The notes under the pieces: model-generated
Told to the model about the DNA's origin: nothing
The model's input: the letters and a program-made list of their open reading frames with translations, nothing else
Database searches by the model: none
Program-made: the position numbers and the translations under genes
Part shown: positions 13,383 through 64,000 of the stretch, in pieces
Layout: every line of letters begins with the position of its first letter
How positions within the stretch are numbered: position 1 is the stretch's first letter
DNA from: Trypanosoma brucei
Taxonomy: Eukaryota
Length of the DNA: 64,000 nucleotides
Reading direction: 5' to 3'
Assembly (NCBI GenBank): GCA_000002445.1
Contig: CP000066.1
Span: 1,344,001 to 1,408,000 of the forward strand

Positions 13383-14300
13383 TTAGGTAGCTTTTTCCGT
13401 GGAGGCATTCCTCGCCTGCTGCCGAAGCAACAAAATCCTGTTCACATGCTTCTGCATAACCTCACGCAGCCCCTGAGAGATATCCTCCGCTGTTGAATCC
13501 TCGTTGTACTTGTACTCGCCGAAACATACGTACACGTCCGCGGGGAATCCCGGGATTTCATTCATCGCAGGTGGCCAAACTTCATGGCAGCCGTTGTGCA
13601 CCATATAATAAAGTCGTGACCGGTGCTTCGTTATCATTGCGAACGTACCGAGGCGGAAGTCCTTTAGTGTCTCTGGTGTTCGGTTTAGGGCACCCTCTGG
13701 AAATACGCAAAGGTTTCCCCCTGCGTTTACGAACTCGTCAGCCTCTTCTGCTACCAACGCCTGCTTCTCCTTGTCCACAGCGAAGCTGCCCCCGGTTGAG
13801 GTAAAGTAAACGGGCAGGTGTCCACACGTATCGATAACTTTGCCCATGAACGGCAAACTCCACAGCGACCTTTTTGCAAACGCTTTCACATTCCTCATAT
13901 AGCTCAAAGGGATGAGCTGTGTAAACAGAATTGTATCGAAGAAGGATGTGTGGCAAGAGCACATCACACCACTGTGGTGAATGCCGTGAGGATCGAGGGA
14001 ACCTTCCATGATCTTGATGTGGATGTGAGGCGAAAGAAACCACAGCACTTTCCCCATAAGGAGACAAGAAAGCCAACAAGCTATGTTTGCGCCTTGTTGC
14101 CTGCTTACCCACTTATTGTAGCGCGCAATACGAATGGGTAGGCACAGAAGGTAGAGTACTATCACTACAGTTACGAGACAAGACACGAACCACAACCGCA
14201 TGACTATCACCGGACAGCGCCGCTCGCGCAGGAGGTACCAGAACCCCATAAAAAGAGCTGCAGCTAAAAGTAGCCCCAGTATCGTCACGACGATCGCCAT
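13383..14300 (-). CDS. Lysophospholipid / 1-acyl-sn-glycerol-3-phosphate acyltransferase (PlsC/AGPAT family), membrane protein.
   Basis: N-terminal TM helices. Acyltransferase motif I HX4D (CHTSFFD) and motif III FPEGALNRT (compare FPEGTR). The track start at 14348 is GTG; the ATG MAIVVTILG is at 14300. Confidence 0.8.
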   Translation of the reverse strand: MAIVVTILGLLLAAALFMGFWYLLRERRCPVIVMRLWFVSCLVTVVIVLYLLCLPIRIARYNKWVSRQQGANIACWLSCLLMGKVLWFLSPHIHIKIMEGSLDPHGIHHSGVMCSCHTSFFDTILFTQLIPLSYMRNVKAFAKRSLWSLPFMGKVIDTCGHLPVYFTSTGGSFAVDKEKQALVAEEADEFVNAGGNLCVFPEGALNRTPETLKDFRLGTFAMITKHRSRLYYMVHNGCHEVWPPAMNEIPGFPADVYVCFGEYKYNEDSTAEDISQGLREVMQKHVNRILLLRQQARNASTEKAT

Positions 14301-14854
14301 ATTTGAAGAAATGAAAAAGAAAGTACAGCCACCAGGCAACTTAGTCACAAAAGAACCAACCAGTCAAACTATATAATGTAGCTTTTTTCTTGAAAAATGG
14401 GGAAGAGAAAAGAACGTGAGCCAGAGATGGGTAAGAGCAGTAGGTCCCCCTTTCCAACAGTACATGTAAATATTTCCGTACAAGCATGTACGGGATGTGG
14501 AAACACAAAAAAAATTCGAACAATATTAGTGGGTATAAGAATCCAGCGACAAATAAACGTAACAAAACATATGAAGGTCAGTAGCATAAAGGGGGGGGGG
14601 AAGGAAAAAAGGAGCGGAACAGGTCCCGTGCGCAATAACAGTCCCAAACAAATCGACCCCCGCCACGCCAGCTACTTTTCTTTCGCTTTCATCTTTTTTT
14701 CTTCCACTTTCCCCACCTTTCTCAATACACGGGATCTCACAGGTAGATACGTAAATACATATATTTGTGTGTATGAGAATATGCGGAGAAGGAGATCAGT
14801 AGTGTTAGCTCTGAAGAGAAAATACAATACGAAAGGAAAAAAAAAGGAGAGATT

Positions 14855-14879
14855 GGGGGGGGGGGGGGCGGGGGGTGGG
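14855..14879 (+). repeat. G14-C-G6-T-G3 tract (a poly-C tract on the transcribed minus strand), followed by a T15 run (14903-14917).
   Basis: Read directly: gggggggggggggg c gggggg t ggg, then tttctttttttttttttt. It lies in the 2.2-kb intergenic spacer of the minus-strand PTU. Confidence 0.9.
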
Positions 14880-16572
14880 AGCTATGTTGCGCAGAATCAC
14901 TTTCTTTTTTTTTTTTGCCGCCGGAACCCTGTTTGGTGCTACCAAATTATGAAAGAGATAAACAGACAAACTACAAATCATTAGTGGGAATGGGTGGGGG
15001 AAACAAAGAAAAGAAATTGAGAAATCCGCTGGGGTTATATGAGGAGAACGCCCTTCCTTGTTCTCCCGCACACACATACACAGGCACGCACGTGTATGGA
15101 TACAAACAAGCATATAAATATGAAAGTATATCTACGCCTATTTTCCTTTCCATTGACAATATTATTATTATTATGCTGTGATATACTTACAACAGCATAC
15201 GTGCAAGTGTAAGCTGATTTGGGTCCGGTGTTACATTAATATATATATGAGCTTGTTTGTATCCGTGTACGTGTGTGTACTTCTCTCTCCCCTCTTAGTC
15301 TTTAGTTTTGACTTCTGTTTCACTTTGTTTTAACCAAAGGCAGAACGGAGATGAATATCATAATAAATGACGACTACTTGTTGGCGTGCGCACGCAAGTT
15401 GCAAAGAAGTTGTGGATCCTTCACTTTTCTTTTGTCTCACCCGTTCCTATTCCCTCATTTCATCCCCGTATTTATGAATATACATAAATGTATTTCTCAT
15501 TATAATTATCATTTATTAAGCAATATTAAGCATGAAAGAGAAAAGGAAGGAAAACAAGGGACACCTGGACCTTTGTGTTTTCCTCCCTTCTTTCGCTGCA
15601 CCTATATACCACCGTGTCATTGACAAGGCCTTCCCGACGCCGCGCTACACACTCCCTTCGCATATCGTCTCTACTTCTCATTTTCATATTTCATTTCATC
15701 GCGATTGCGTGGACAATTATCGTTTCGGCCTGAGCTTAATTGCTTTTGGCCCCTCGCATTTATTGCATTTGGCGTTTGTTTTCCCTTTCCTGTTTCATTA
15801 TTCATCTCTTCTTTTGTATCTCCGGCGGTAGTATCGTCGTCACTCTCCCTCCTTCCATTTCTCTCACTTTTCGCTTTAACAACAATCATAACAATAACAG
15901 TAATGATAGCTAAATGGAGGGAACTGCCAACAGCAGTGCAAACGAACAGACAAGTAACACTGTTTAGGAATCGGCAGAATGAAATGCACTACCTCTACCA
16001 ACCGTTGCCAAAGCAACGAAAGGGTAAATACTTCCTCTTCTAGTTTTGGTTCATTTCGTTTCGCTTCTTTTGTCCTGTTTTCTTTTCTTTTTTCGTCGTT
16101 GCTGACGGTTATTATATTAAACAAAATCAATAAATGAAATGAAGCAAGGTGCCTGTTCACGAACAATGTCCGTGTGCGTGTGTGTGGGGAGGGGGAGGAG
16201 TAAAAATACGTAAACGCGCGCGACCTTTTTTCCTTTTGAATACACTCGATGGTGTGCGCGTGGAGGGGGAATATCAGACAAAACAAAACCATATGTCATA
16301 GAGGCTACAGAAAAAAAAAAAGAGTGGCCACATTACTTGACATTGTCAAGTAACCCCCCCAAAAAATGGCGGAAGGCTTACGAAAGGCAAGCCTTTATCA
16401 CAATAGTAACAGTTTCGTGTAAAGGGGAGGGTGGAAAAGCAAAAAAACAAAAACAAACTTAAAGGAAGAGAGAGGGGGAGAGGTCTCATTCTTTCCCCCT
16501 CGCCCTCCGTTGCTCCTGGGTAATTAAAATATATCGTTGGGTAGCTCCCTCATCGTGGAGGTAGCGGCTGAC

Positions 16573-28946: not shown

Positions 28947-29561
28947 TCAAATCCTTTTCGCTAAAGCCACACCCAGAGAACACATTATACGAATGCCATT
29001 GTACAAAAGTGGGTACGCTGGTGCATTTTCTGCGCCATTTTGCTCCCCGAGCTCCTGGTGATGCAGTTCTTCATCCCTGAACCGAGCAACATACTCCATG
29101 ACTTCTGCCCAGTCCTTTTCATCCTTGCCTTTCGAAGCACCTTCCGACTCCTCGAGGGATTGTAGCTCCCTAAGCTGATCATTATAGTGCTGTGCTATTG
29201 TGACTTCAACAGCAGCATGGCAACACATTACTGCATCCTTTCCCAGAAGAGCGGTGCAACTACCCATCACAAAGGCGCCCACGTGAAACAGTGGATCTAG
29301 TAACGTCAAGCGCACCGAATGCTTACGAGCTAGGTGACCCATAACCTCTTCGTGAACGAGCTCATCCCTCAGTATCTCCTTGACAACTGGCACGCCACTA
29401 TCGAGGGGGGACATCCATAGCAACTGATACTTGCATATGCGCACCGCAGCCACTTCCCCAGCCTGGTCAACGCGCACAGCTTCATCGAGCTTTTGCCGCT
29501 TCGCCGCGCTTCTGAAAACACGAGCTGGGTTCTGAAGGTTAACCACCGATCTGCGTAACAT
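28947..29561 (-). CDS. COQ7: Ubiquinone biosynthesis di-iron monooxygenase COQ7 (5-demethoxyubiquinone hydroxylase).
   Basis: RVDQAGEVAAVRICKYQ, LLDPLFHVGAFVMG, AVEVTIAQHYNDQLREL and FRDEELHHQELG...APAYPLLYNGIRIMCSLGVALAKRI match the COQ7/CLK-1 di-iron carboxylate motifs (ExxH pairs). This is the first gene of the minus-strand PTU, adjacent to the strand-switch region. Confidence 0.85.
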   Translation of the reverse strand: MLRRSVVNLQNPARVFRSAAKRQKLDEAVRVDQAGEVAAVRICKYQLLWMSPLDSGVPVVKEILRDELVHEEVMGHLARKHSVRLTLLDPLFHVGAFVMGSCTALLGKDAVMCCHAAVEVTIAQHYNDQLRELQSLEESEGASKGKDEKDWAEVMEYVARFRDEELHHQELGEQNGAENAPAYPLLYNGIRIMCSLGVALAKRI

Positions 29562-32059
29562 ACCTAACTAGCTTCAAGGGAAGGCATTTAGCAAACAAAC
29601 AAACATACAAAAGGATATATTGCCTAAAATGGTCGCGCAGCGAATGAATTGCTGAGACAAAGACTCCCAAACTATACCCCCTCTGGGATCAAGTAGGAAA
29701 TGAACATACTGTGGGATACTCGCGTTGGATCCGCCTCCTGTGAACCAGTATTTTCCATACGAGATGGCTGCTTTAGCGAAAAACCGACGAAGCAGTTCAC
29801 ATGCGTACACGGAGATGCGCACGCCGAGGTCAACCCTGGCTGGCCCGCTCCAGAACCGACTCCCAGTGCTGCCGCTGCAGAGAAGAGGGGAGAACGGCGA
29901 TGAATTCAGCGTGAGAACCCAGTTTACAATACCGTGGTGGGGCTCCTCCTACGCTACTTTGCCCACAAAAGCAGCCACACTCAACGCCTCCAGGCACGTG
30001 GAGGAAAATAAAGAAAGGTAAGAATCTCTTCTAACCCGAGACGGTGGCTCCACAGACCCTCAGCCTACTTCTAGCAACCAACGCAGTCGAGGACGGTAAT
30101 GAGAGGGAGGAAGCAGCCCGTTCACAATCAGCTCCAGGAAGCAAGAAAGACCTCGTAACCGCTGCTCCGAGTCGGGTGCCCACACGGGCAAAACTCCGCG
30201 CACCCTTTCGGGCCTCGGCACAGACCCAGTGCGATTCCCCATCCCACCTCTCCCAAAAAGTCCACCAGTGCGCTGTGCTTTCCACCTGACCACAGTCGTC
30301 CTGTTGCCAATATAACCCATTTCTTAAGGGAAGCCCCGTCGTCCACAGTTAAAAAGACGGCGTGTGGTCGTAGCGCCATGGGACTCTCCATATCTGTGCC
30401 TGCTGCTGAAATGCTCGCCCCGGCGATTGCCGTCCCTACAGCAGGCTCGTCTATTCAGTGAAAAAGAGAGGGGAGTTGGCATGTTGCGTGTGTGTGTCGG
30501 GGCTCAGTGCCTTCGTTGCTCCTTTGGGATTTCAGTATCAGTTTTTTACTCTCAGCACGCGCGTCGGCCACGCATAGGCCGCCTTTCCCGTTGGGGCGGC
30601 GTTCGCGCCCTTCTTTGAACGGGGTCGGCTTTACCCCTTTATCGTTTCCGTTTTTTTTTTTTCGAGGCTTCCTCCAGCCATATGTTCTGAGGATGGGTGT
30701 TGGGTACAAACTTCGTTGAAGTACCTGCTTAAGGTTCCTATTTTTTAGTTGTTTATCCCCCAAGTGGGGGTTACCTCGTCTGCGCCTTTGCCTGTGTGGG
30801 GCGCGGAAGACGGGACGGCTTACGACGGAGAGAGGTGCTCCTTTACAGGGGTAGAACGTTGCCAAACTTTTACTGTTTAGCCAAATCTTTTTGGTATATA
30901 TTTTGAGTATTAATTACCCTTTGGAGTGTGCACGTGTTGTTTTCCTTCACTTATACGCGTGTTCCCCGACTTCCAACTGTTGTGCAAGTCTCTTCCTTGG
31001 TTATTAAAAAAACACTAGTGGTTACAAGTTGCTTTACCATATCCTTACCGGTTGTTTTATTAAGGTGGTTCCGTTCAATTATGCGCGTAAGATGACGTGA
31101 TGTATTTATGTAATACGCATAGGCTTGTGTAAATGTGGTTTTCCACAATTCCCACAAATGTGTTACTGTGGATAGTTGTTTTTGTTCCGTTACGCTTCTT
31201 TGTTTTTAGACTATCGCGCACGTCACGGTTTAGGTCGCTTCCACTGCTCTTGTTGTTGTTGCAACGTCCTCGGCTATCTTCTTTGTATTGATAAGTGCGC
31301 CCGTCCGTCATAGCTAACCTGGTTGTTGTTAAGGGTTGTCAAATCTACCTATGCTTAGTACTTTATGCATTTAGGATATGCGCAGAACTGAACTTACTTC
31401 GTTTTTGCTGCCTCATTTGCCGATTCAGCACAGATGGGATGCTTTGCGTCTGCTTCATGGGGTGTGGAGGTGACGGTTTTTAGGTAACAGCCGACCTGCG
31501 TTTCTTTGTACCACTCTTTGGAGGACGACACTCCCTTTTTTGTGTCGCTGGGAGAAAGCGAGTAGTCGGAAAAACGAATGGTTCGCATCAGCGGTTGTTT
31601 ACTTCTTCAGTTTTGTTGTTTGTCACCCCCGTTTATGTGGCTGTTCGTGCAGATTTGTGCTTGTGGTAACCTGTGGAATGGTGGGCAAATCAGTAAAATC
31701 GTAGCGGTTGAGCCGTTTTAGCGCACATTTGGTGATTTCTTATGAGCAGTTTATAATAGGGGGTAAAGAGTGTTTCTGCCCCTTACGTCATAGGGTGGTT
31801 GTGCCTGTGGCGATGGTGCAGGACGGAATATTCTAGGTAACTTCTGGTTGTTCCGTGCTGCTAACCATATGGGGGAAATGCATGTTTGATTCTCTTGTTG
31901 GTTGTATTTAACAGCAAGTGATAACTTTGTCTGTTTCTTGTCATCATTTTCGAAGGTGACTGTTCCACTGAAATGTGATATTTTGCCGCCGACTTCGCCC
32001 CTCTCGACACTTGCAAGCAGCAACAGCAGCAAAGAGTGATGTGAAGTGACCAGGAAGCT
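29562..32059. promoter_or_regulatory. Divergent strand-switch region between the two PTUs, the putative bidirectional RNA Pol II start region. It is GT-rich on the plus strand toward the plus-strand PTU.
   Basis: Coding strand polarity switches from minus (COQ7 start at 29561) to plus (IPT start at 32060). No credible ORF lies in between. From 30600 to 32000 the plus strand is strongly G/T-rich (gttgttgttgcaacg, ggttgttgttaagggttg, and similar). GT-rich elements are the known promoter class at trypanosome divergent strand-switch regions. Confidence 0.6.
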
Positions 32060-33436
32060 ATGAGGTCTATTTACTTTGTCATAGGCGCGACCGGCAGTGG
32101 TAAGTCACTAGCAGCAGTTCGAGTTGCTAAGACCCTTCAGCTCAGGTGTGGCTGTAACAATGTGGTAATATTGAACTGTGACGTTATGCAGTTTTACGCC
32201 GGTCTTCCCATTGTGACGAACAAGATATCATCGGAGGAAATGGATGGGATTCCTCACTGCTTTATGAGTTTCCTTTCTCCCGAGGGCAATAAAATTCGCG
32301 ACCCAACGTTGGCATTCGGAGGTTGTGACCGTGAAGCATTTTCTGAACAGGGTTGTAAGTCTGCAAATGATGCGTATAATATTCATTCATTCGTTCGCGA
32401 TGCTGTAAGTTATATCGAAAGCTTTTTGTCAACTCATTCTCCTGCAGCGGTGGTCGTTTGCGGTGGAACGTGCTATTACGTCCAGTCACTGCTTTTCGAC
32501 AATCTTTTAACTGTAGAAGATACTCATGTGTCGGGGTGTCTGGACACAACTGGCGGGTGCGCAGAACACACCGAATTGAATGATGGGAATTCTCTTTGGG
32601 ACCAACTGAAGGATATTGACCCGGACATTGCTGCTCGATACCATCCCAACGACATCAGACGGATTCGGCGCCTCGTCGACATATACAAAAGGACCAATAG
32701 GATACCATCCGATGTTTATAACTCCAGGGAGAAGCCGCGACTTCGATTTTGTCCCAGTACGTGCTTCATATTGTGGACACACATTGAACTTGAAAAGCTT
32801 AGGCCAAAACTCAACGCACGTATAGATGTGATGGTCGAAAAAGGGATCATTGAGGAATGCCGCAAATTTGCTCAGCGGCATAAAGAGGACGTTTTTACGC
32901 TACCCCTAGGGAAAGCCATAGGTTTTAAAGAAATTGTTTCGTCCTTTGACATGTCGGGAAGTGAAGTTCAACTAAAGGGCGAACGCGAAGTTTCAGAGTC
33001 GCTGGATCTTCTGAAAGTGAACACCAACCGATACGCACGGCAGCAGTGCCAGTGGATAAAAAACCGCTTTCTTGGTCGTCTTCGCGAGCTGTTTGCTACT
33101 GTAAATCTGGAGGAAAACTTTGTTGCAGTTGACGCCTCTGCGAGTCCTTCCGATTTTCTTCGGCAAGTTGAAGTTGCCGTTTTGTTTTTCACCAAACGGA
33201 CGTGCGACAATGTCGCTGGGTTGTTTTTTCCATTGAAAAAAGATGTGTCAATACCATCCCCGGTTCGGCACGAGTGGTGTGGCGTCTGCAACGTCTTTTA
33301 TACCGATGGGAGGGGGAGAATCTCACATCTGCATTCGAAACGACACAGGGGTGCCCTAAGGCACGAGGCGTTGGTGAAGGAGCAAGCTGAGAAGTTTGGT
33401 CGGATAATTCCTTCTAAGAGAGTTAAGCGGTCGTAA
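32060..33436 (+). CDS. tRNA dimethylallyl(isopentenyl)transferase (MiaA/Mod5 family) with a C-terminal C2H2-type zinc finger.
   Basis: P-loop VIGATGSGKSLAAVRVA, conserved DxxQ(F)Y(AG) region and the C-terminal zinc finger WCGVCNVFYTDGRGRISHLHSKRHRG typical of eukaryotic Mod5. Confidence 0.9.
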   Translation: MRSIYFVIGATGSGKSLAAVRVAKTLQLRCGCNNVVILNCDVMQFYAGLPIVTNKISSEEMDGIPHCFMSFLSPEGNKIRDPTLAFGGCDREAFSEQGCKSANDAYNIHSFVRDAVSYIESFLSTHSPAAVVVCGGTCYYVQSLLFDNLLTVEDTHVSGCLDTTGGCAEHTELNDGNSLWDQLKDIDPDIAARYHPNDIRRIRRLVDIYKRTNRIPSDVYNSREKPRLRFCPSTCFILWTHIELEKLRPKLNARIDVMVEKGIIEECRKFAQRHKEDVFTLPLGKAIGFKEIVSSFDMSGSEVQLKGEREVSESLDLLKVNTNRYARQQCQWIKNRFLGRLRELFATVNLEENFVAVDASASPSDFLRQVEVAVLFFTKRTCDNVAGLFFPLKKDVSIPSPVRHEWCGVCNVFYTDGRGRISHLHSKRHRGALRHEALVKEQAEKFGRIIPSKRVKRS

Positions 33437-35130: not shown

Positions 35131-35438
35131 ATGTTGGCAGCAACGGGGTTCCGTCTCCATACCTCAAGCTCATCAAAAATAACGAAACAGTCCAAGGCAG
35201 GGTATACCTCACGCAGCCCGGGAAGGACTTCGTCACGTGTATCACGGATTTAATCTTTTCTTCTTGAATACGCGTCTGGCTTGGAAATACCTCCCGGCAG
35301 CTCAATGCAGGAGTTGCCTTAACTCGGCGGGAGCGGTTACTTCTGGAAAGCGCAACTAAAGATCTTCTTCGACTCGTCCCCTTTAGTTTCTTCATCCTCG
35401 TTCCGTTTGCCGAGCTCCTGCTACCTGTTGCACTGAAG
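35131..35438 (+). other. LETM1: Conserved LETM1 N-terminal coding segment lying in shifted reading frames relative to the downstream LETM1 ORF. No in-frame ATG is available.
   Basis: Frame 2 (35183-35297) encodes AAREGLRHVYHGFNLFFLNTRLAWKYL, matching human LETM1 [29 protein letters not shown]. Frame 0 (35268-35438, bounded by TGA at 35265) encodes LNAGVALTRRERLLLESATKDLLRLVPFSFFILVPFAELLLPVALK, matching [41 protein letters not shown] and continuing directly into the 35439 ORF. Frame 1 has ATG 35131, MLAATGFRLHTSSSS..., a presequence-like peptide. Deleting one C at agCCCGGgaag (~35217) and one C at ctCCCGGcag (~35297) restores a single ~481-aa ORF. Confidence 0.55.
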
Positions 35439-36575
35439 ATGTTTCCGGACCTGATTCCCTCAACATTTGAGAGTGAAAATCAGGGACGCAACAAGGCCTT
35501 TACGACTCTTATGGGAACGGTGCGTGCCCGACGCCGGTTGGCGGAATACCTGTCGTCCACTGCTTTTGTAAGCTTTACGAAAGAACAACAAGAAGTGGTG
35601 CGTTTCTCGGCAATGGGGGAGGCGGTGACCGCGAACCAGATACGTTTAATTGCACCTCATTTTGGTCGGGAAGGGCCGTTTAATGTCTACCAGATCCCCA
35701 ATGGTATTGCAGTAGCTCTGGCAAGGACTGTGGGAGTATACAAAGCATACCATGGTCTTGTTCCTAACAAAATTATGGCTCCTTACATGCGTCGTAAGAT
35801 CTTGCGGCAGTATCATAAAACCCGCGAGGATGACCGTATGCTACGTTTGGAGGGGCTTGACGATTTAACGGATGAGGAGCTGATAAAGGCGAACCTTGTT
35901 CGGGGTATGCGCTGGACAGAGGATGCGGAGACACTACGTATCCAACTTGAATGGTGGATATCTCTAGGACGTGACCCGGATGTCCCTTACAACACCCTTT
36001 TCTGGGTCAAGCCTACCCGATACAGCTTGAAAGAGTCAATGAAACGCTTGCCTGTGGAACAGCGCCGGCAGCTATTGGGCATTCAACATCTTCCCGAGAG
36101 CATTCGTGGAAATCTCGAGACACTCTGCGAAACGGTCGACACAGCTCCATCCATGAGTGAGGGTAAACCTGAGGACGCTGATCAGCTAGTGGAGAAACTT
36201 GCAGAGTTAAATGCTAAAACGAAAATCAGTGATAAGGATATTGCAATTCAGAATATTCAAATATCGCTGGGCGCTTATCTAACGGAACCAAATGTGAAAC
36301 GTATGTTTGAAGACATTCGCAAAAGTAAAACAGTGAACGAATATATAACAGTTACGGATGTCATAGATTTCATTGGAAGTGAAACCCATAATTCTTCCCA
36401 TGTAGTTTCTACTGTGTTTGATGCGTTCGATCAGAGTAGCGGAGTGAAGGCAATTACCGAATCTACACTCATATCTATCGGGGCCCGCTGCAGGGAGGCG
36501 TCAAAGGCACATGTCGACGTATCGTCTCAGTCTTCCCCAGGCAAACAGCCTTCAGAGGTGATTGCAAAAAATTAG
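35439..36575 (+). CDS. LETM1: LETM1-like mitochondrial inner-membrane protein (K+/H+ exchange; LETM1 ribosome-binding domain). This is the ORF as it stands from the first in-frame ATG; the true N-terminus is probably upstream (see the 35131-35438 segment).
   Basis: MFPDLIPSTFESENQ matches LFPNMLPSTFETQS of LETM1 immediately after the TM helix. Downstream are LETM1-domain helices and a long acidic/coiled C-terminus. 378 aa from this ATG. Confidence 0.8.
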   Translation: MFPDLIPSTFESENQGRNKAFTTLMGTVRARRRLAEYLSSTAFVSFTKEQQEVVRFSAMGEAVTANQIRLIAPHFGREGPFNVYQIPNGIAVALARTVGVYKAYHGLVPNKIMAPYMRRKILRQYHKTREDDRMLRLEGLDDLTDEELIKANLVRGMRWTEDAETLRIQLEWWISLGRDPDVPYNTLFWVKPTRYSLKESMKRLPVEQRRQLLGIQHLPESIRGNLETLCETVDTAPSMSEGKPEDADQLVEKLAELNAKTKISDKDIAIQNIQISLGAYLTEPNVKRMFEDIRKSKTVNEYITVTDVIDFIGSETHNSSHVVSTVFDAFDQSSGVKAITESTLISIGARCREASKAHVDVSSQSSPGKQPSEVIAKN

Positions 36576-38458
36576 GTTGTACCGGTGTTTTTTCCCCGTA
36601 TCATCACCAACGTTTACCGACTGTTCGCCATGGAGGAAGCACCATGACTGTAGGTTCATCGAGGGGGGGGGGTAGCAACCCCGAAGAACATATACATTAC
36701 TTCCGCCTTGTGCTCAGGGACATTGAACTACCATTTGCTCCAGTGAACGATGTTTCATGACAAAGACTGGTGCGAAATTGGTATGTATTACGTTTATGTA
36801 TGTGCGGATTAATGTTTTGGCTCCCGTTTTCTCTGTTCAGGGCTGCGGCGTTACTAGCGCGATTAAAGAACGTTGGGTGGGGAGGGGGTATAAGGCATGT
36901 TTACCCTTGTACCCGGGTGTAGCACAAATTTATGCGGCAGCAGGGAAGTATATGAACATAACTGTAGGGGTCCTGCGCGAAGAGCGGGTGACGTGCAATT
37001 ATATCATAGATCTGAAACTTGAATGAAAGCATTCTACTTCGTTTTTAAATTCCCCCTTTCTACAACTTTGAGGAAAGATATACATCAAGTGATCCATGTA
37101 GCCGCACATGAAACCCAGTTCGACTGGCTGTTGTTACCGTGCATTCGATATTGGGAAGAGGACGGCACCCCTTCCCGCTATTTCACCCACGGGTGCGCTG
37201 CGAACGTTAAACGCTTCAACGACGTCGGGTTTCTTTCGACAGTTTGGTGTCGCTGGTAATGGAGTGCAGAGTTTTCCGAAGCAAGCTCAAGAAAGGGCAT
37301 GTTCCCACCCGACTGCTAAATTTCTTTCAGGCAAATATAAGCGGTGGATACACCCGGTGGATTTCGAGTCTTTGAACGAACCCACCCTGTCAATTTGATT
37401 GTGATGAGTTATGTGATATTTTTCTATCATGTTTTGGCGCGTCATAATGACATAGTCACTTCTTTGTGTTTTACCCGAGTCGGAGGCGCCACTTAATACT
37501 ATGTAGGTGAGTTTTTGGTGGGATTCGGCTCAGCAGTTGCACTATTGTGACTCCGTTGATACACAGCGTGTCGAAGGCATGCACCTTATTTCGATAACCA
37601 CATCAATGAAAAGCGTTGTGTTTCATGCGAACTTTGGTGTTTCACACATTCTACTTTACCTCTTTTCATACTGGAGCGGTAGTTGGGATCATGTTTACGA
37701 CGGTATCTTTTTAAAAATATATATATATATATATATATACCATCTGTTAACCCAGTTATCTGTTTTTCGTTGTTTGTGGCGTCGGTTTTGTTGTTAAAGG
37801 CACATTTTAGCGCCATCATTACCTATTAGTGCCCCGATTTGTTGTCGTTGTTATCACTGGAAGTTTCTTTGTACTGTAGCCACTCGTTACCGTGAGTGGT
37901 TGAATCGTTTTTCGACTGGTCAACTATTTTGACTTGAAGGACCCGTCGTATCCTCTGGCATGTGGTGTTCGTGGTTGATACAAACGTGTTTGTGCGTGGT
38001 TTGCTGGGGTTTCGACTGCAGCGCTTGTGTTATTTGGCAGTGACCACAAGTACAAACTGTCTGTCGCACAAACCACCTAGCTAGCAAAAAATTTTGCCAC
38101 ATGCACGTCTTGAATAAACGGACGTGGCGACGTTCATGCTAATTTCATCGGTTACGTTGCTTGGGGGAAGTGCTGTAGCATTATTCGCGATAGGGGAGGG
38201 ATTTTTTTTTTTGGAGTGTTTATTTGTTTCTTCCCTTTAATGGTGCAGAGGAATGGGCTTGATACAGCTCGGGGATGTCGCTGTACTTTGATCGGGGGAA
38301 ACGACTAAAGGGTATCTGTGAAGATGTTTTTGTTGGTGGGGAGATGCTTAGAGGTGAGTTATCTACATGGAAGTGGGTCTGCATTGCCGCTGCCTGCATT
38401 CCCTTATTTTGAACGGTAGTCGCTCAACGATGCTTCTTCCCACATATTTTGAGAGCGA

Positions 38459-62873: not shown

Positions 62874-63454
62874 TGAACGGAGGAACAAAACATCCCATCC
62901 CTTTCTTCCGGTCCGAGACATTTTAACAGCGCGGTTCCAAGGAGGGGAGAATGCTAGAGCAAACAACACAGCCGTTAACCAATAACAAATGTTGTGAATG
63001 TTTTTGTACCATATGAGGTGCAATCCCCAGTTTGGATGCGACACCATTATTTAAATTCTCCTTTTTTTGTTTTGTATCTTTCCCCACTTTTCCCTTCCTT
63101 CTCTTGTTTGTCGGCTTGCCGCTCGAGTCTACGTGTGGTGACGGACGGGTATACGTTGAGAAAACATATTTTTCAGGAGAGGAGGAGGGGAGAAGGGGGC
63201 TTGCGTGTTCTTTCTTTCTGAGTGTGTGTGGAATATGCACGCGTATAAAGAAGGCTTATGAGAGAAGAATTACGTGTGAATCTAGAGAGTAGAGTTGTAA
63301 CAATGGGCAAGTGAGTGCATGGCAAAGTACATTCCGACACCTTAAGGAGTCAGAAGGTCAGTGTTGGCAAAGTTTTATTTGAGTTTTGTCCATTTTCATC
63401 TCAAACCCATCACACTCTCCCCCTTTTTACTTTTATTGTTTCACCAACATGAAA

Positions 63455-63458
<4 letters not shown>

Positions 63459-63501
<43 letters not shown>

Positions 63502-63586
63502 ACACGATGTATATGGCACTAGGTGGGGTCTTGGTTTTGTCCCTTTGTTTGTTTGTTTGTTTGTTTGTGTGTGTGTTGTTGTTGTG
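63459..63586 (+). repeat. Compound microsatellite: (AT)20 at 63459-63498, then (TTTG)6-(TG)5-(TTG)3 at 63544-63586.
   Basis: Read directly. Similar (TA)n runs occur at 304-321, 37717-37739 and 50212-50235, all in intergenic/UTR spacers. Confidence 0.9.
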
Positions 63587-64000
63587 CGGTTGGACTGTTT
63601 GATGTGGGACGTCGTCGCCATAGAGGTTTTCCCTCCGAAACTTTTTTGTCTTGAATGTGTTTCATGTAGTCCACCTGTCTGTTGTTCCCGATCTGCACGA
63701 GCACGGTTGTGGGTACGGATTGTGTAGGGTGTGCCAAGGGGAATTGAAAAAAGAAAAGGATAATAAAATTTTATGTGGTGTGTATTTATGCGCTTTGCGT
63801 CGCATGCACGCAGACTTAGTGCCAGCATAACCGTTCTTCTGTTTTTGTTTTCCCCCCTGTTTCTGATTTCATACACATTTTTTTTTGTGCGGTACATGCA
63901 GTGTGGGTGTCGCGAGTAGAAAACCGAAGACGTGAAGTTACTCCTGCACGGCTGTACACGAAGTGTGTGATAGAAAGATAATTAGGGATACGTGGGTGAC

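Follow-up and report, generated by a model that had tools for sequence, protein, structure and literature searches.

The analysed window, a 64-kb stretch of Trypanosoma brucei TREU927 chromosome 3 (v4 coordinate = window position + 1,344,000), carries two gene arrays that diverge from a single gap of 2,498 bp at 29562–32059 (chromosome 3 ∼1,373,562–1,376,059). All long ORFs to the left of the gap lie on the minus strand and all those to the right on the plus strand, and the published novel transcripts of the window share this polarity on each side (Kolev et al., 2010). The gap is flanked by COQ7, whose protein is 100% identical to T. brucei/T. equiperdum COQ7, and by a tRNA isopentenyltransferase (IPPT), 100% identical to the TREU927 protein; NAP2 (Tb927.3.4880) and LETM1 (Tb927.3.4920) are also identified at the locus. 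An earlier note on this DNA had described the COQ7/IPPT gap as the sole flip of coding polarity in 64 kb. The polarity of the ORFs and the Pfam assignments of the flanking genes bear this out, and ORF, Pfam, tRNA and Rfam searches, together with transcript polarity, place no gene between the opposing arrays.

Table 1. Features of the COQ7/IPPT gap and its flanks (window positions)
Feature	Position	Strand	Basis
COQ7 CDS, Tb927.3.4890	28947-29561	minus	Pfam PF03232, E 4.9e-54; heads unit Tb927.3.4890 to 4400 (Kolev Table S14)
COQ7 10-nt 5'UTR, splice-acceptor AG and polypyrimidine tract	29562-29625	minus	Kolev Table S12, splice-acceptor site (SAS) chr3:1373571
Left arm: unprocessed leader and candidate minus-unit initiation zone	29572-30350	minus	GT skew +0.166, GC 0.54
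GC-rich non-coding island holding the skew inversion	29650-30550		GC 0.54-0.575 over most of its length (600-bp windows)
Strand-asymmetry crossover	30267-30456		T-A minimum 30267; G-C minimum 30456; GT minimum 30358
Right arm before the first plus acceptor: best candidate plus-unit initiation zone/GT-rich dispersed promoter	30351-31209	plus	GT skew +0.199, T skew 0.31
Tb3.NT.63, 699 nt, trans-spliced and polyadenylated	31210-31909	plus	Kolev Table S7, chr3 1375210-1375909; earliest processed RNA in the plus unit
IPPT polypyrimidine/splice-acceptor region and 42-nt 5'UTR	31910-32059	plus	Kolev Table S12, SAS 1376018; spliced-leader addition at 32018
IPPT CDS, Tb927.3.4900	32060-33436	plus	Pfam PF01715, E 2.4e-47; heads unit Tb927.3.4900 to 5730 (Kolev Table S14)

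Subtracting 1,344,000 puts each of six published splice-acceptor coordinates immediately behind an AG that is preceded by a pyrimidine tract, and this match fixed the position on the chromosome. The minus-strand AG of COQ7 corresponds to plus-strand ct at 29572–29573, with spliced-leader addition at 29571 (context ccttttgtatgtttgtttgtttgctaaatgccttcccttgaag followed by CTAGTTAGGT). The acceptors of Tb3.NT.63, an RNA with short ORFs only, were confirmed as AG plus polypyrimidine tract at 31208–9 and 31294–5; the major site is 1375296 (Kolev Table S12), window position 31296. The IPPT acceptor lies in the context cgacacttgcaag followed by CAGCAACAGC. An unprocessed core is thus bracketed by the first spliced-leader acceptors, 29571 on the minus strand and 31210/31296 on the plus strand. 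Given these first mapped acceptors and processed RNAs on each side, both start sites must lie within 29,572–31,209 (1.64 kb).

The gap was described previously as devoid of credible ORFs, and Pfam, protein look-up and period-3 analysis were indeed all negative. None of nine gap ORFs (the longest up to 136 aa) matched Pfam, none of the ten ATG ORFs was present in an exact look-up in a collection of 15 billion proteins, and no codon periodicity was detected in the gap, the period-3 signal-to-noise of 29,650–30,550 being 0.2–1.3 compared with 2.5–7 in coding sequence. ARAGORN returned 0 tRNA genes in the gap, and Rfam gave 0 matches at the gathering score and 0 at E ≤ 1. Folding z-scores relative to shuffled sequences were −1.26 for Tb3.NT.63, +2.1 (2.12) for the left arm and −0.80 for a third segment, and neither these nor family matches point to a structured non-coding RNA gene. 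The suggestion that the gap harbors short unannotated ncRNAs holds insofar as Tb3.NT.63 has been published from it; the tRNA, Rfam and folding analyses gave no sign of a structured small RNA. No repeat family was found in the gap, a search for repeats or inverted repeats as promoter architecture yielded one weak 18-nt pair only, and six-frame tblastn and blastn of the gap against the orthologous upstream loci and the rest of the window detected no similarity.

Strand composition of the gap

Sliding-window GT skew, a calculation proposed in the earlier note, flips inside the gap, from −0.17 in 29562–30300 to +0.215 in 30400–32000 on the plus strand, and the cumulative GT-skew minimum of the whole window, at 30358, also lies there. 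The composition profile across the gap is V-shaped with its vertex at ∼30,358, and on this sequence evidence the crossover (Table 1) would represent the midpoint between two divergent initiation zones. The GT-rich plus-strand stretch extends from ∼30,350 to 32,000 (skew +0.20); the heavy G/T bias noted previously from ∼30600 is real, although the skew minima place its onset ∼250 bp earlier. The right arm as a whole has a GT skew of +0.198 (T skew 0.28, G skew 0.10), so that the bias is mostly one of T over A, and the left arm mirrors it on the minus strand, its own sense strand. On the two sides of the vertex, plus-strand G skew is −0.31 to −0.41 in 30151–30350, corresponding to a G-rich minus strand, and +0.19 to +0.32 in 30401–30550. 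Simple runs in the right arm include (GT)5 at 30488–30497 and T12 at 30651–30662. About half of the GT-rich stretch is Tb3.NT.63, and the strongest skew (+0.24) lies inside this RNA and not upstream of it.

The background, drawn from ordinary intergenic DNA of the window read on the sense strand, has a pooled skew of +0.103; its 850-nt windows have an sd of 0.067, a 95th percentile of 0.185 and a maximum of 0.216. The GT excess of the gap is overwhelming when compared with a 50/50 expectation and moderate when compared with this background. Read on its own sense strand, each arm is GT-rich at 1.6–2 times the intergenic norm, and a coding-strand G/T excess of this kind at the 5′ end (+0.20 right, +0.17 left, versus +0.10 intergenic) is that expected of a GT-rich promoter. 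The bias is not unique to the gap, as 1-kb windows at 37401, 42001 and 63001 reach 0.20–0.22. The motifs listed in the earlier note were recovered (ggttgttgtt at 31321, gttgttgtt at 31252, gtgtgg at 30794 and 31461), but its description of the plus strand as strongly GT-rich is somewhat overstated: the skew is about twice the intergenic norm, is driven mainly by T, and a simple-run scan of the gap found no G run of at least 7.

Wedel et al. (2017, PMC5579346) obtained directional transcription and H2A.Z deposition with fragments of start regions, all tested fragments being from chromosome 10, and with synthetic GT-rich sequences. Coding-strand 10-mers from that study occur in 30351–31209 in a ratio of 7 sense to 0 antisense, at five independent sites in 859 bp, which corresponds to 8.2 per kb compared with 2.75 per kb in ordinary intergenic DNA (∼3-fold); the left arm has 2 sense and 0 antisense. 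The sense-only 10-mers of the gap include GGTTGTTGTT, CGTGTGTGTG and GTGTTGTTTT, and the G10 runs that dominate the published list are absent from it. The proposal that a GT-rich element acts here as a promoter is compatible with these counts, although they are weakly specific. Some non-promoter stretches of the window (among them 14001–15000 and 63001–64000) contain more exact 10-mers, and these counts were rejected as a discriminator, since they do not tell some ordinary low-complexity stretches from the gap.

A second compositional feature is the GC-rich island at 29,650–30,550, with a GC content of 0.54–0.58 versus 0.45 in intergenic DNA (0.448 ± 0.036 in 600-bp windows, maximum 0.527). 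The left part of the gap has the GC content of coding sequence and contains overlapping ORFs of 80–136 aa.

The locus in other trypanosomes

In T. cruzi and T. theileri, too, COQ7 is the opening gene of a unit at a divergent strand-switch region, where the skew flips likewise; in T. cruzi and T. grayi, minus-strand calls give way to a plus-strand series that opens with IPPT. A mere local inversion, the scenario that the earlier note had set against a start region, fails to account for these arrangements. The order IPPT-SPP-LETM1 is conserved with IPPT at the head of the array; in L. donovani the IPPT orthologue does not head a unit. The divergent partner of COQ7 in T. cruzi and T. theileri differs from that in T. 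brucei, indicating that the gap is a synteny breakpoint. The two species show the same architecture without sequence similarity to the T. brucei gap, and comparison with the regions upstream of IPPT and COQ7 in T. vivax, T. cruzi, T. theileri, T. grayi, T. rangeli and L. donovani likewise revealed no similarity. In T. equiperdum all 2,498 bp are identical, which is uninformative because the overall divergence is only ∼0.6 per kb. The unit boundaries (COQ7 first, IPPT first) predate the DNA that separates them.

In T. cruzi and T. theileri an island with a GC content of 0.6–0.7 sits at the crossover of the COQ7 strand-switch region, and in T. theileri and T. grayi one lies immediately 5′ of IPPT; the islands of these three species and T. 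brucei have no sequence in common. Upstream of IPPT, reverse-transcriptase ORFs were found in T. cruzi and T. grayi.

Probable divergent initiation and its alternatives

Both units flanking the gap, Tb927.3.4890 to Tb927.3.4400 on the minus strand and Tb927.3.4900 to Tb927.3.5730 on the plus strand, are listed as 'Divergent' putative Pol II units, and enrichment is described at every divergent unit (Kolev et al., 2010, Table S14 and text). The gap is thus very probably (∼0.9) a divergent strand-switch region at which Pol II starts the first unit leftward and the second rightward; the support for initiation at this position is the published table, as distinct from a locus-level read or ChIP track. 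The earlier proposal that two transcription start regions here drive the two units gains support from the same table, and such a region at this locus is already published, catalogued since 2010, and an ordinary example of its kind. H2A.Z/H2B.V, H4K10ac and promoter factors (BDF3, SPARC) have been described as forming twin peaks at start regions generally; no chromatin coordinates for chromosome 3 ∼1.374 Mb were found in the supplements of Staneva 2021 and 2022.

Initiation would be dispersed and mainly unidirectional on either side of the crossover, probably beginning in the G-rich blocks at 30,151–30,350 (minus sense) and 30,401–30,550 (plus sense) and running into the T/G-rich arms. Sense-strand GT-rich sequence may favor directional initiation and the deposition of H2A.Z/H2B.V, spreading several kilobases into each unit. 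The primary transcripts would then be resolved by trans-splicing and the 5′ leader pieces discarded, with the COQ7 acceptor at 29,571 coming first on the minus strand and the Tb3.NT.63 acceptors at 31,210 and 31,296, then that of IPPT at 32,018, on the plus strand. No common motif was found beneath promoter-factor peaks (Staneva et al., 2022), so that GT-rich sequence may be either a cause or a consequence of initiation.

There is a substantial, if less than even, chance that the gap starts both units while its GT-richness arises as a by-product rather than serving as the promoter. The bias would then reflect the usual composition of trypanosome sense-strand non-coding RNA, with the polypyrimidine tracts of trans-splicing and polyadenylation, U-rich untranslated RNA and transcription-linked mutational skew, and initiation would be set by chromatin factors, a GC-rich core or a short sequence-specific element. 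Some 850 of the ∼1,700 GT-rich bases belong to Tb3.NT.63 and the IPPT 5′UTR, the skew peaks within the processed Tb3.NT.63, several of the GT and T runs belong to mapped splice sites as their polypyrimidine tracts, skews of 0.20–0.24 also occur in ordinary intergenic windows, and the gap has no G runs. Other species show a like sense-strand skew ahead of IPPT and COQ7, with no conservation of sequence, and sequence-specific T. brucei promoters have been reported (Cordon-Obras et al., 2022, as cited by Staneva et al., 2022). However, a synthetic GT-rich element is enough to bring about directional initiation and H2A.Z deposition (Wedel et al., PMC5579346), and the ∼3-fold 10-mer density, on the sense strand only, is found in 30351–31209, before any mapped splice site. 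A related proposal, that the GC island with its inversion of G and T skew, and not the GT-rich arms, is the functional core here and at other Trypanosoma start regions, is unlikely. Were the island to nucleate polymerase and promoter factors, it would resemble a CpG island in being a bidirectional core defined by composition, and transcription would largely account for the GT-rich arms.

It is similarly improbable that the gap is also, or primarily, a DNA replication origin or an ORC1/CDC6 binding site. Of 42 early-firing T. brucei origins, 19 have a divergent strand-switch region at their center, and ORC1/CDC6 is found bound where transcription units meet (Tiengwe, 2012); the GC-skew and GT-skew vertex lies inside the gap. 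That vertex, however, is fully explained by transcription polarity, most ORC1/CDC6 sites are not active origins, and no origin or binding-site coordinate at chromosome 3 ∼1.374 Mb was found in the text or supplements of Tiengwe (2012). Far less probable still, and largely refuted, is a gap that is mainly non-promoter, either the remnant of a decayed gene or retroelement left by rearrangement or the site of a hidden structured RNA gene. The synteny breakpoint, the reverse-transcriptase ORFs upstream of IPPT in the two other species and the left part of the gap, with its coding-like GC content and overlapping ORFs, would fit such a reading, but the absence of Pfam matches, look-up hits, codon periodicity, repeats and tblastn/blastn similarity speaks against a hidden or decayed protein gene or retroelement, and the tRNA and Rfam scans, negative even at E ≤ 1, with folding no better than that of shuffled sequence, speak against a structured RNA gene.

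Relation to known start regions

Read as a divergent Pol II start region, the gap differs in nothing essential from those described in T. brucei (Siegel, 2009; Kolev, 2010; Wedel, 2017). It shares with them a gene-free interval between diverging units, a sense-strand G/T excess on both sides, the lack of a conserved motif, and first processed RNAs that begin between a few hundred bases and ∼1 kb away from the crossover; here, long G runs are missing. The gap resembles the GT-rich promoters of Wedel et al. (2017) in that the 5′ end of its start region is GT-rich in a strand-specific manner and has sense-only 10-mers. The density of exact 10-mers is modest, and 30351–31209 is a candidate promoter. 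The focused, sequence-specific promoters of Cordon-Obras et al. (2022, Cell Rep 38:110221) resemble the arrangement proposed here in that two separate unidirectional promoters would lie between divergent units; motifs similar to theirs were not found genome-wide beneath promoter-factor peaks (Staneva, 2022).

The analogy to the dispersed divergent promoters of mammalian CpG islands was drawn by Kolev et al. themselves, and it extends here to a GC-rich island of ∼0.9 kb, presumed broad divergent initiation and the lack of a TATA-like motif. In contrast to CpG islands, the observed/expected CpG ratio is 0.8–0.9, no higher than in the flanks, and trypanosome units are polycistronic, each side seemingly mainly unidirectional (Wedel, PMC5579346).

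How start points for Pol II are chosen in trypanosomes is still debated, with chromatin-defined dispersed promoters, GT-rich elements and short sequence-specific promoters under consideration. Bidirectional initiation is reported for the strand-switch region of Leishmania major chromosome 1, from a short region between divergent clusters (Martinez-Calvillo et al., 2003). That region is alike in its divergent gene clusters and in the G/C tracts on the respective strands, but belongs to another genus and has no sequence relation to the gap. The COQ7/IPPT gap represents no new kind of element and is one of ∼70 divergent start regions; with an unprocessed core of 1.64 kb, mapped first splice sites on both sides, and a GC island within which the skew inverts sharply, it offers a compact and well-delimited substrate for dissection.

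Strand switch and published start regions

The protein encoded by IPPT (tRNA isopentenyltransferase) is 100% identical to a T. brucei brucei TREU927 protein from chromosome 3. Neighboring genes are NAP2 (Tb927.3.4880) and LETM1 (Tb927.3.4920), an order that makes COQ7 Tb927.3.4890 and IPPT Tb927.3.4900. Splice-acceptor coordinates for these genes have been tabulated (Kolev et al., 2010; PMC2936537). After subtraction of 1,344,000, six of six tested sites immediately follow an AG that has a pyrimidine tract upstream of it, which places the window at Tb927_03_v4:1,344,001–1,408,000. Pfam also confirms the neighbors NAP, signal peptide peptidase, and LETM1.

To the left of the gap between COQ7 and IPPT all long ORFs are on the minus strand, and to the right all are on the plus strand. 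Novel transcripts in the window's long gaps have the same polarity as the neighboring ORFs (Kolev et al., 2010). The polarity flip described in the earlier note is therefore borne out by ORF strands, Pfam, and published transcript polarity. Its proposal that the gap holds paired transcription start regions is also supported, and had been published before for precisely this locus, since Kolev Table S14 lists both units ("Tb927.3.4890 -> Tb927.3.4400, -, Divergent" and "Tb927.3.4900 -> Tb927.3.5730, +, Divergent"). In that study, enrichment was observed at every divergent transcription unit.

Coordinates of features at the COQ7–IPPT locus and of GC islands in related species
Feature	Position	Strand	Source or remark
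COQ7	28947–29561	minus	Pfam
COQ7 splice acceptor	29571	minus	Kolev coordinates; 5′UTR 10 nt
Unprocessed core	29572–31209		1.64 kb
GC island	29650–30550		non-coding, within unprocessed core
Tb3.NT.63	31210–31909	plus	Kolev Table S7; chr3 1375210–1375909, 699 nt; major acceptor at 31296
IPPT splice acceptor	32018	plus	Kolev coordinates; 5′UTR 42 nt
IPPT	32060–33436	plus	Pfam
GC islands of relatives (COQ7 strand-switch regions / upstream of IPPT)	L008 9601–9900; L012 9551–9850; L003 8851–9350; L004 2951–3450		

In LETM1, the stretch 35131–35439 of the TREU927 sequence carries three 1-bp indels (35204, 35210, and 35290) relative to the intact 481-aa LETM1 of T. equiperdum. These spread the first 54 codons across three frames, which is why the ORF finder calls an ORF of 378 aa beginning at 35439. 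The published LETM1 5′UTR of 443 nt is atypical. The likely cause is either an indel error in the reference or a frameshift particular to the strain.

Contents and composition of the gap

No tRNA was found in the 2,498 bp of the gap, an Rfam search gave no match at the gathering score or at E ≤ 1, and a search for repeat families found none. Its ORFs (longest 136 aa) had no Pfam match, ten ATG ORFs were absent from a 15-billion-protein collection, and analysis of codon periodicity detected none, in line with the earlier view that the gap lacks credible ORFs. A decayed gene or a hidden RNA gene is essentially excluded. The gap might also serve as a replication origin, since in T. brucei divergent strand-switch regions account for 19 of 42 early origins (Tiengwe, 2012).

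Part of the gap is transcribed and processed. Tb3.NT.63 is a novel trans-spliced, polyadenylated transcript (Kolev et al., 2010), and its position and those of the acceptors indicate that half of the GT-rich stretch is processed RNA with its splicing signals. The skew peak (+0.24) falls within this transcript. That the GT bias is a by-product of the composition of sense-strand non-coding RNA, and not the promoter itself, is a possible if somewhat doubtful reading; Wedel et al. (2017; PMC5579346) found that synthetic GT-rich elements drive transcription directionally and cause H2A.Z to be deposited. Unprocessed DNA is limited to the 1.64-kb core, and both start zones must therefore fall within it.

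The ORFs of Tb3.NT.63 are short (≤62 aa), with no Pfam match and no annotated product, and its folding showed nothing unusual. Kolev numbering skips from Tb3.NT.61 to Tb3.NT.63; a withdrawn "NT.62" may have mapped nearby as well.

Plus-strand GT skew is −0.17 (AC-rich) in 29562–30300 and +0.215 (GT-rich) in 30400–32000, and cumulative skew over all 64 kb has a single minimum, at 30358. The GT-rich plus strand reported earlier is thus present, but its onset is near 30,350 and not 30,600, and the left arm (29572–30350, minus sense), overlooked at the time, is its mirror image. On their own sense strands the right and left arms have skews of +0.198 and +0.166. Ordinary intergenic DNA of the window (sense strand) gave a pooled value of +0.103 (850-nt windows: sd 0.067, 95th percentile 0.185, maximum 0.216), and the skews of 1-kb windows at 37401, 42001, and 63001 are near those of the arms. 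The excess is genuine, at roughly double the intergenic norm, yet it does not stand wholly apart, so that "strongly" GT-rich needs a more sober effect size. It is mainly T over A (T skew 0.28–0.31, G skew 0.07–0.16), and the gap has no G runs of ≥7.

Initiation has been mapped to the 5′ ends of wide H2A.Z domains and has a strand bias of ∼4:1; all start-region fragments tested in that study had promoter activity, and G- or T-rich coding-strand 10-mers were concentrated at initiation sites (Wedel et al., 2017). In a count of the 157 published 10-mers across the window, ordinary intergenic sequence gave 2.75 per kb sense and 2.36 per kb antisense. The segment 30351–31209 has seven sense (five independent sites; 8.2 per kb) and no antisense matches, a density that some non-promoter stretches exceed, and the left arm has two sense and none antisense. 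The hallmark G10 runs are absent from the gap. These counts are weakly compatible with the GT-promoter model. No common motif was found under promoter-factor peaks (Staneva et al., 2022).

The window's highest 10-mer count (22 per kb) lies inside the plus unit at 63459–63586, where two microsatellites, (AT)20 and (TTTG)8.5, occur along with 43 nt composed solely of G and T; the 10-mers are therefore not promoter-specific. On its plus strand, which is antisense there, a 2.2-kb gap within the minus-strand unit (14349–16572) carries G10, a ∼25-nt G-rich tract, and T12 (14591–14600, 14855–14879, and 14905–14916), with 22 antisense versus 15 sense 10-mer matches and a spurious-looking 195-aa plus-strand ORF. 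No internal start site is listed there (Kolev et al., 2010).

Comparison with other trypanosomes

Synteny downstream of IPPT (IPPT-SPP-LETM1-...) is kept in T. vivax, T. cruzi, T. theileri, T. grayi, and T. rangeli, and in none of these do genes of the window's left half occur within 10 kb upstream of IPPT. Calls upstream of IPPT, reverse-transcriptase fragments among them, have the opposite polarity in T. cruzi and T. grayi. In T. cruzi and T. theileri, COQ7 heads its array at a 2.3–2.5-kb divergent strand-switch region opposite an M18 aminopeptidase and then two kinesins, and IPPT heads a separate array; the aminopeptidase is absent from the T. brucei window. In a comparison with L002, L003, L008, L009, and L012, COQ7–IPPT pairing is confined to the T. 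brucei group, which takes in T. equiperdum (L007). Because each gene heads its own array elsewhere, both unit starts are old and their pairing is lineage-specific, making the gap a synteny breakpoint. The same pattern argues against a mere local inversion. In T. vivax, genes for proteins of 213 aa and 233 aa form a pair that occurs in two copies, 5.8 kb apart, upstream of COQ7 and on its strand (L010 476–8385), and COQ7 may not head its unit there.

The strand-switch architecture recurs in other species although the gap DNA is not conserved in the relatives' loci. The T. equiperdum gap is identical, but the sequences diverge so little overall that this identity is uninformative.

The GC island has a GC content of 0.54–0.575 over most of its length (600-bp windows), compared with 0.448 ± 0.036 in ordinary intergenic windows. 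Within it G skew inverts sharply, from −0.31 to −0.41 in 30151–30350 (G-rich strand, COQ7 sense) to +0.19 to +0.32 in 30401–30550 (IPPT sense). Within the paper collection searched, none joins GC-rich sequence, TSRs, Trypanosoma brucei, and H2A.Z, and the islands of T. brucei, T. cruzi, T. theileri, and T. grayi share no sequence similarity. T. cruzi and T. theileri have a 300–500-bp island (GC 0.6–0.7) exactly at the skew inversion, 200–450 bp upstream of COQ7, and in T. theileri and T. grayi whole-locus GC maxima (0.6–0.7) lie just upstream of IPPT's GT-rich leader. Among these results only the coincidence of the GC island with the skew inversion is modestly new; the island's position recurs in three species, and it is worth a genome-wide test.
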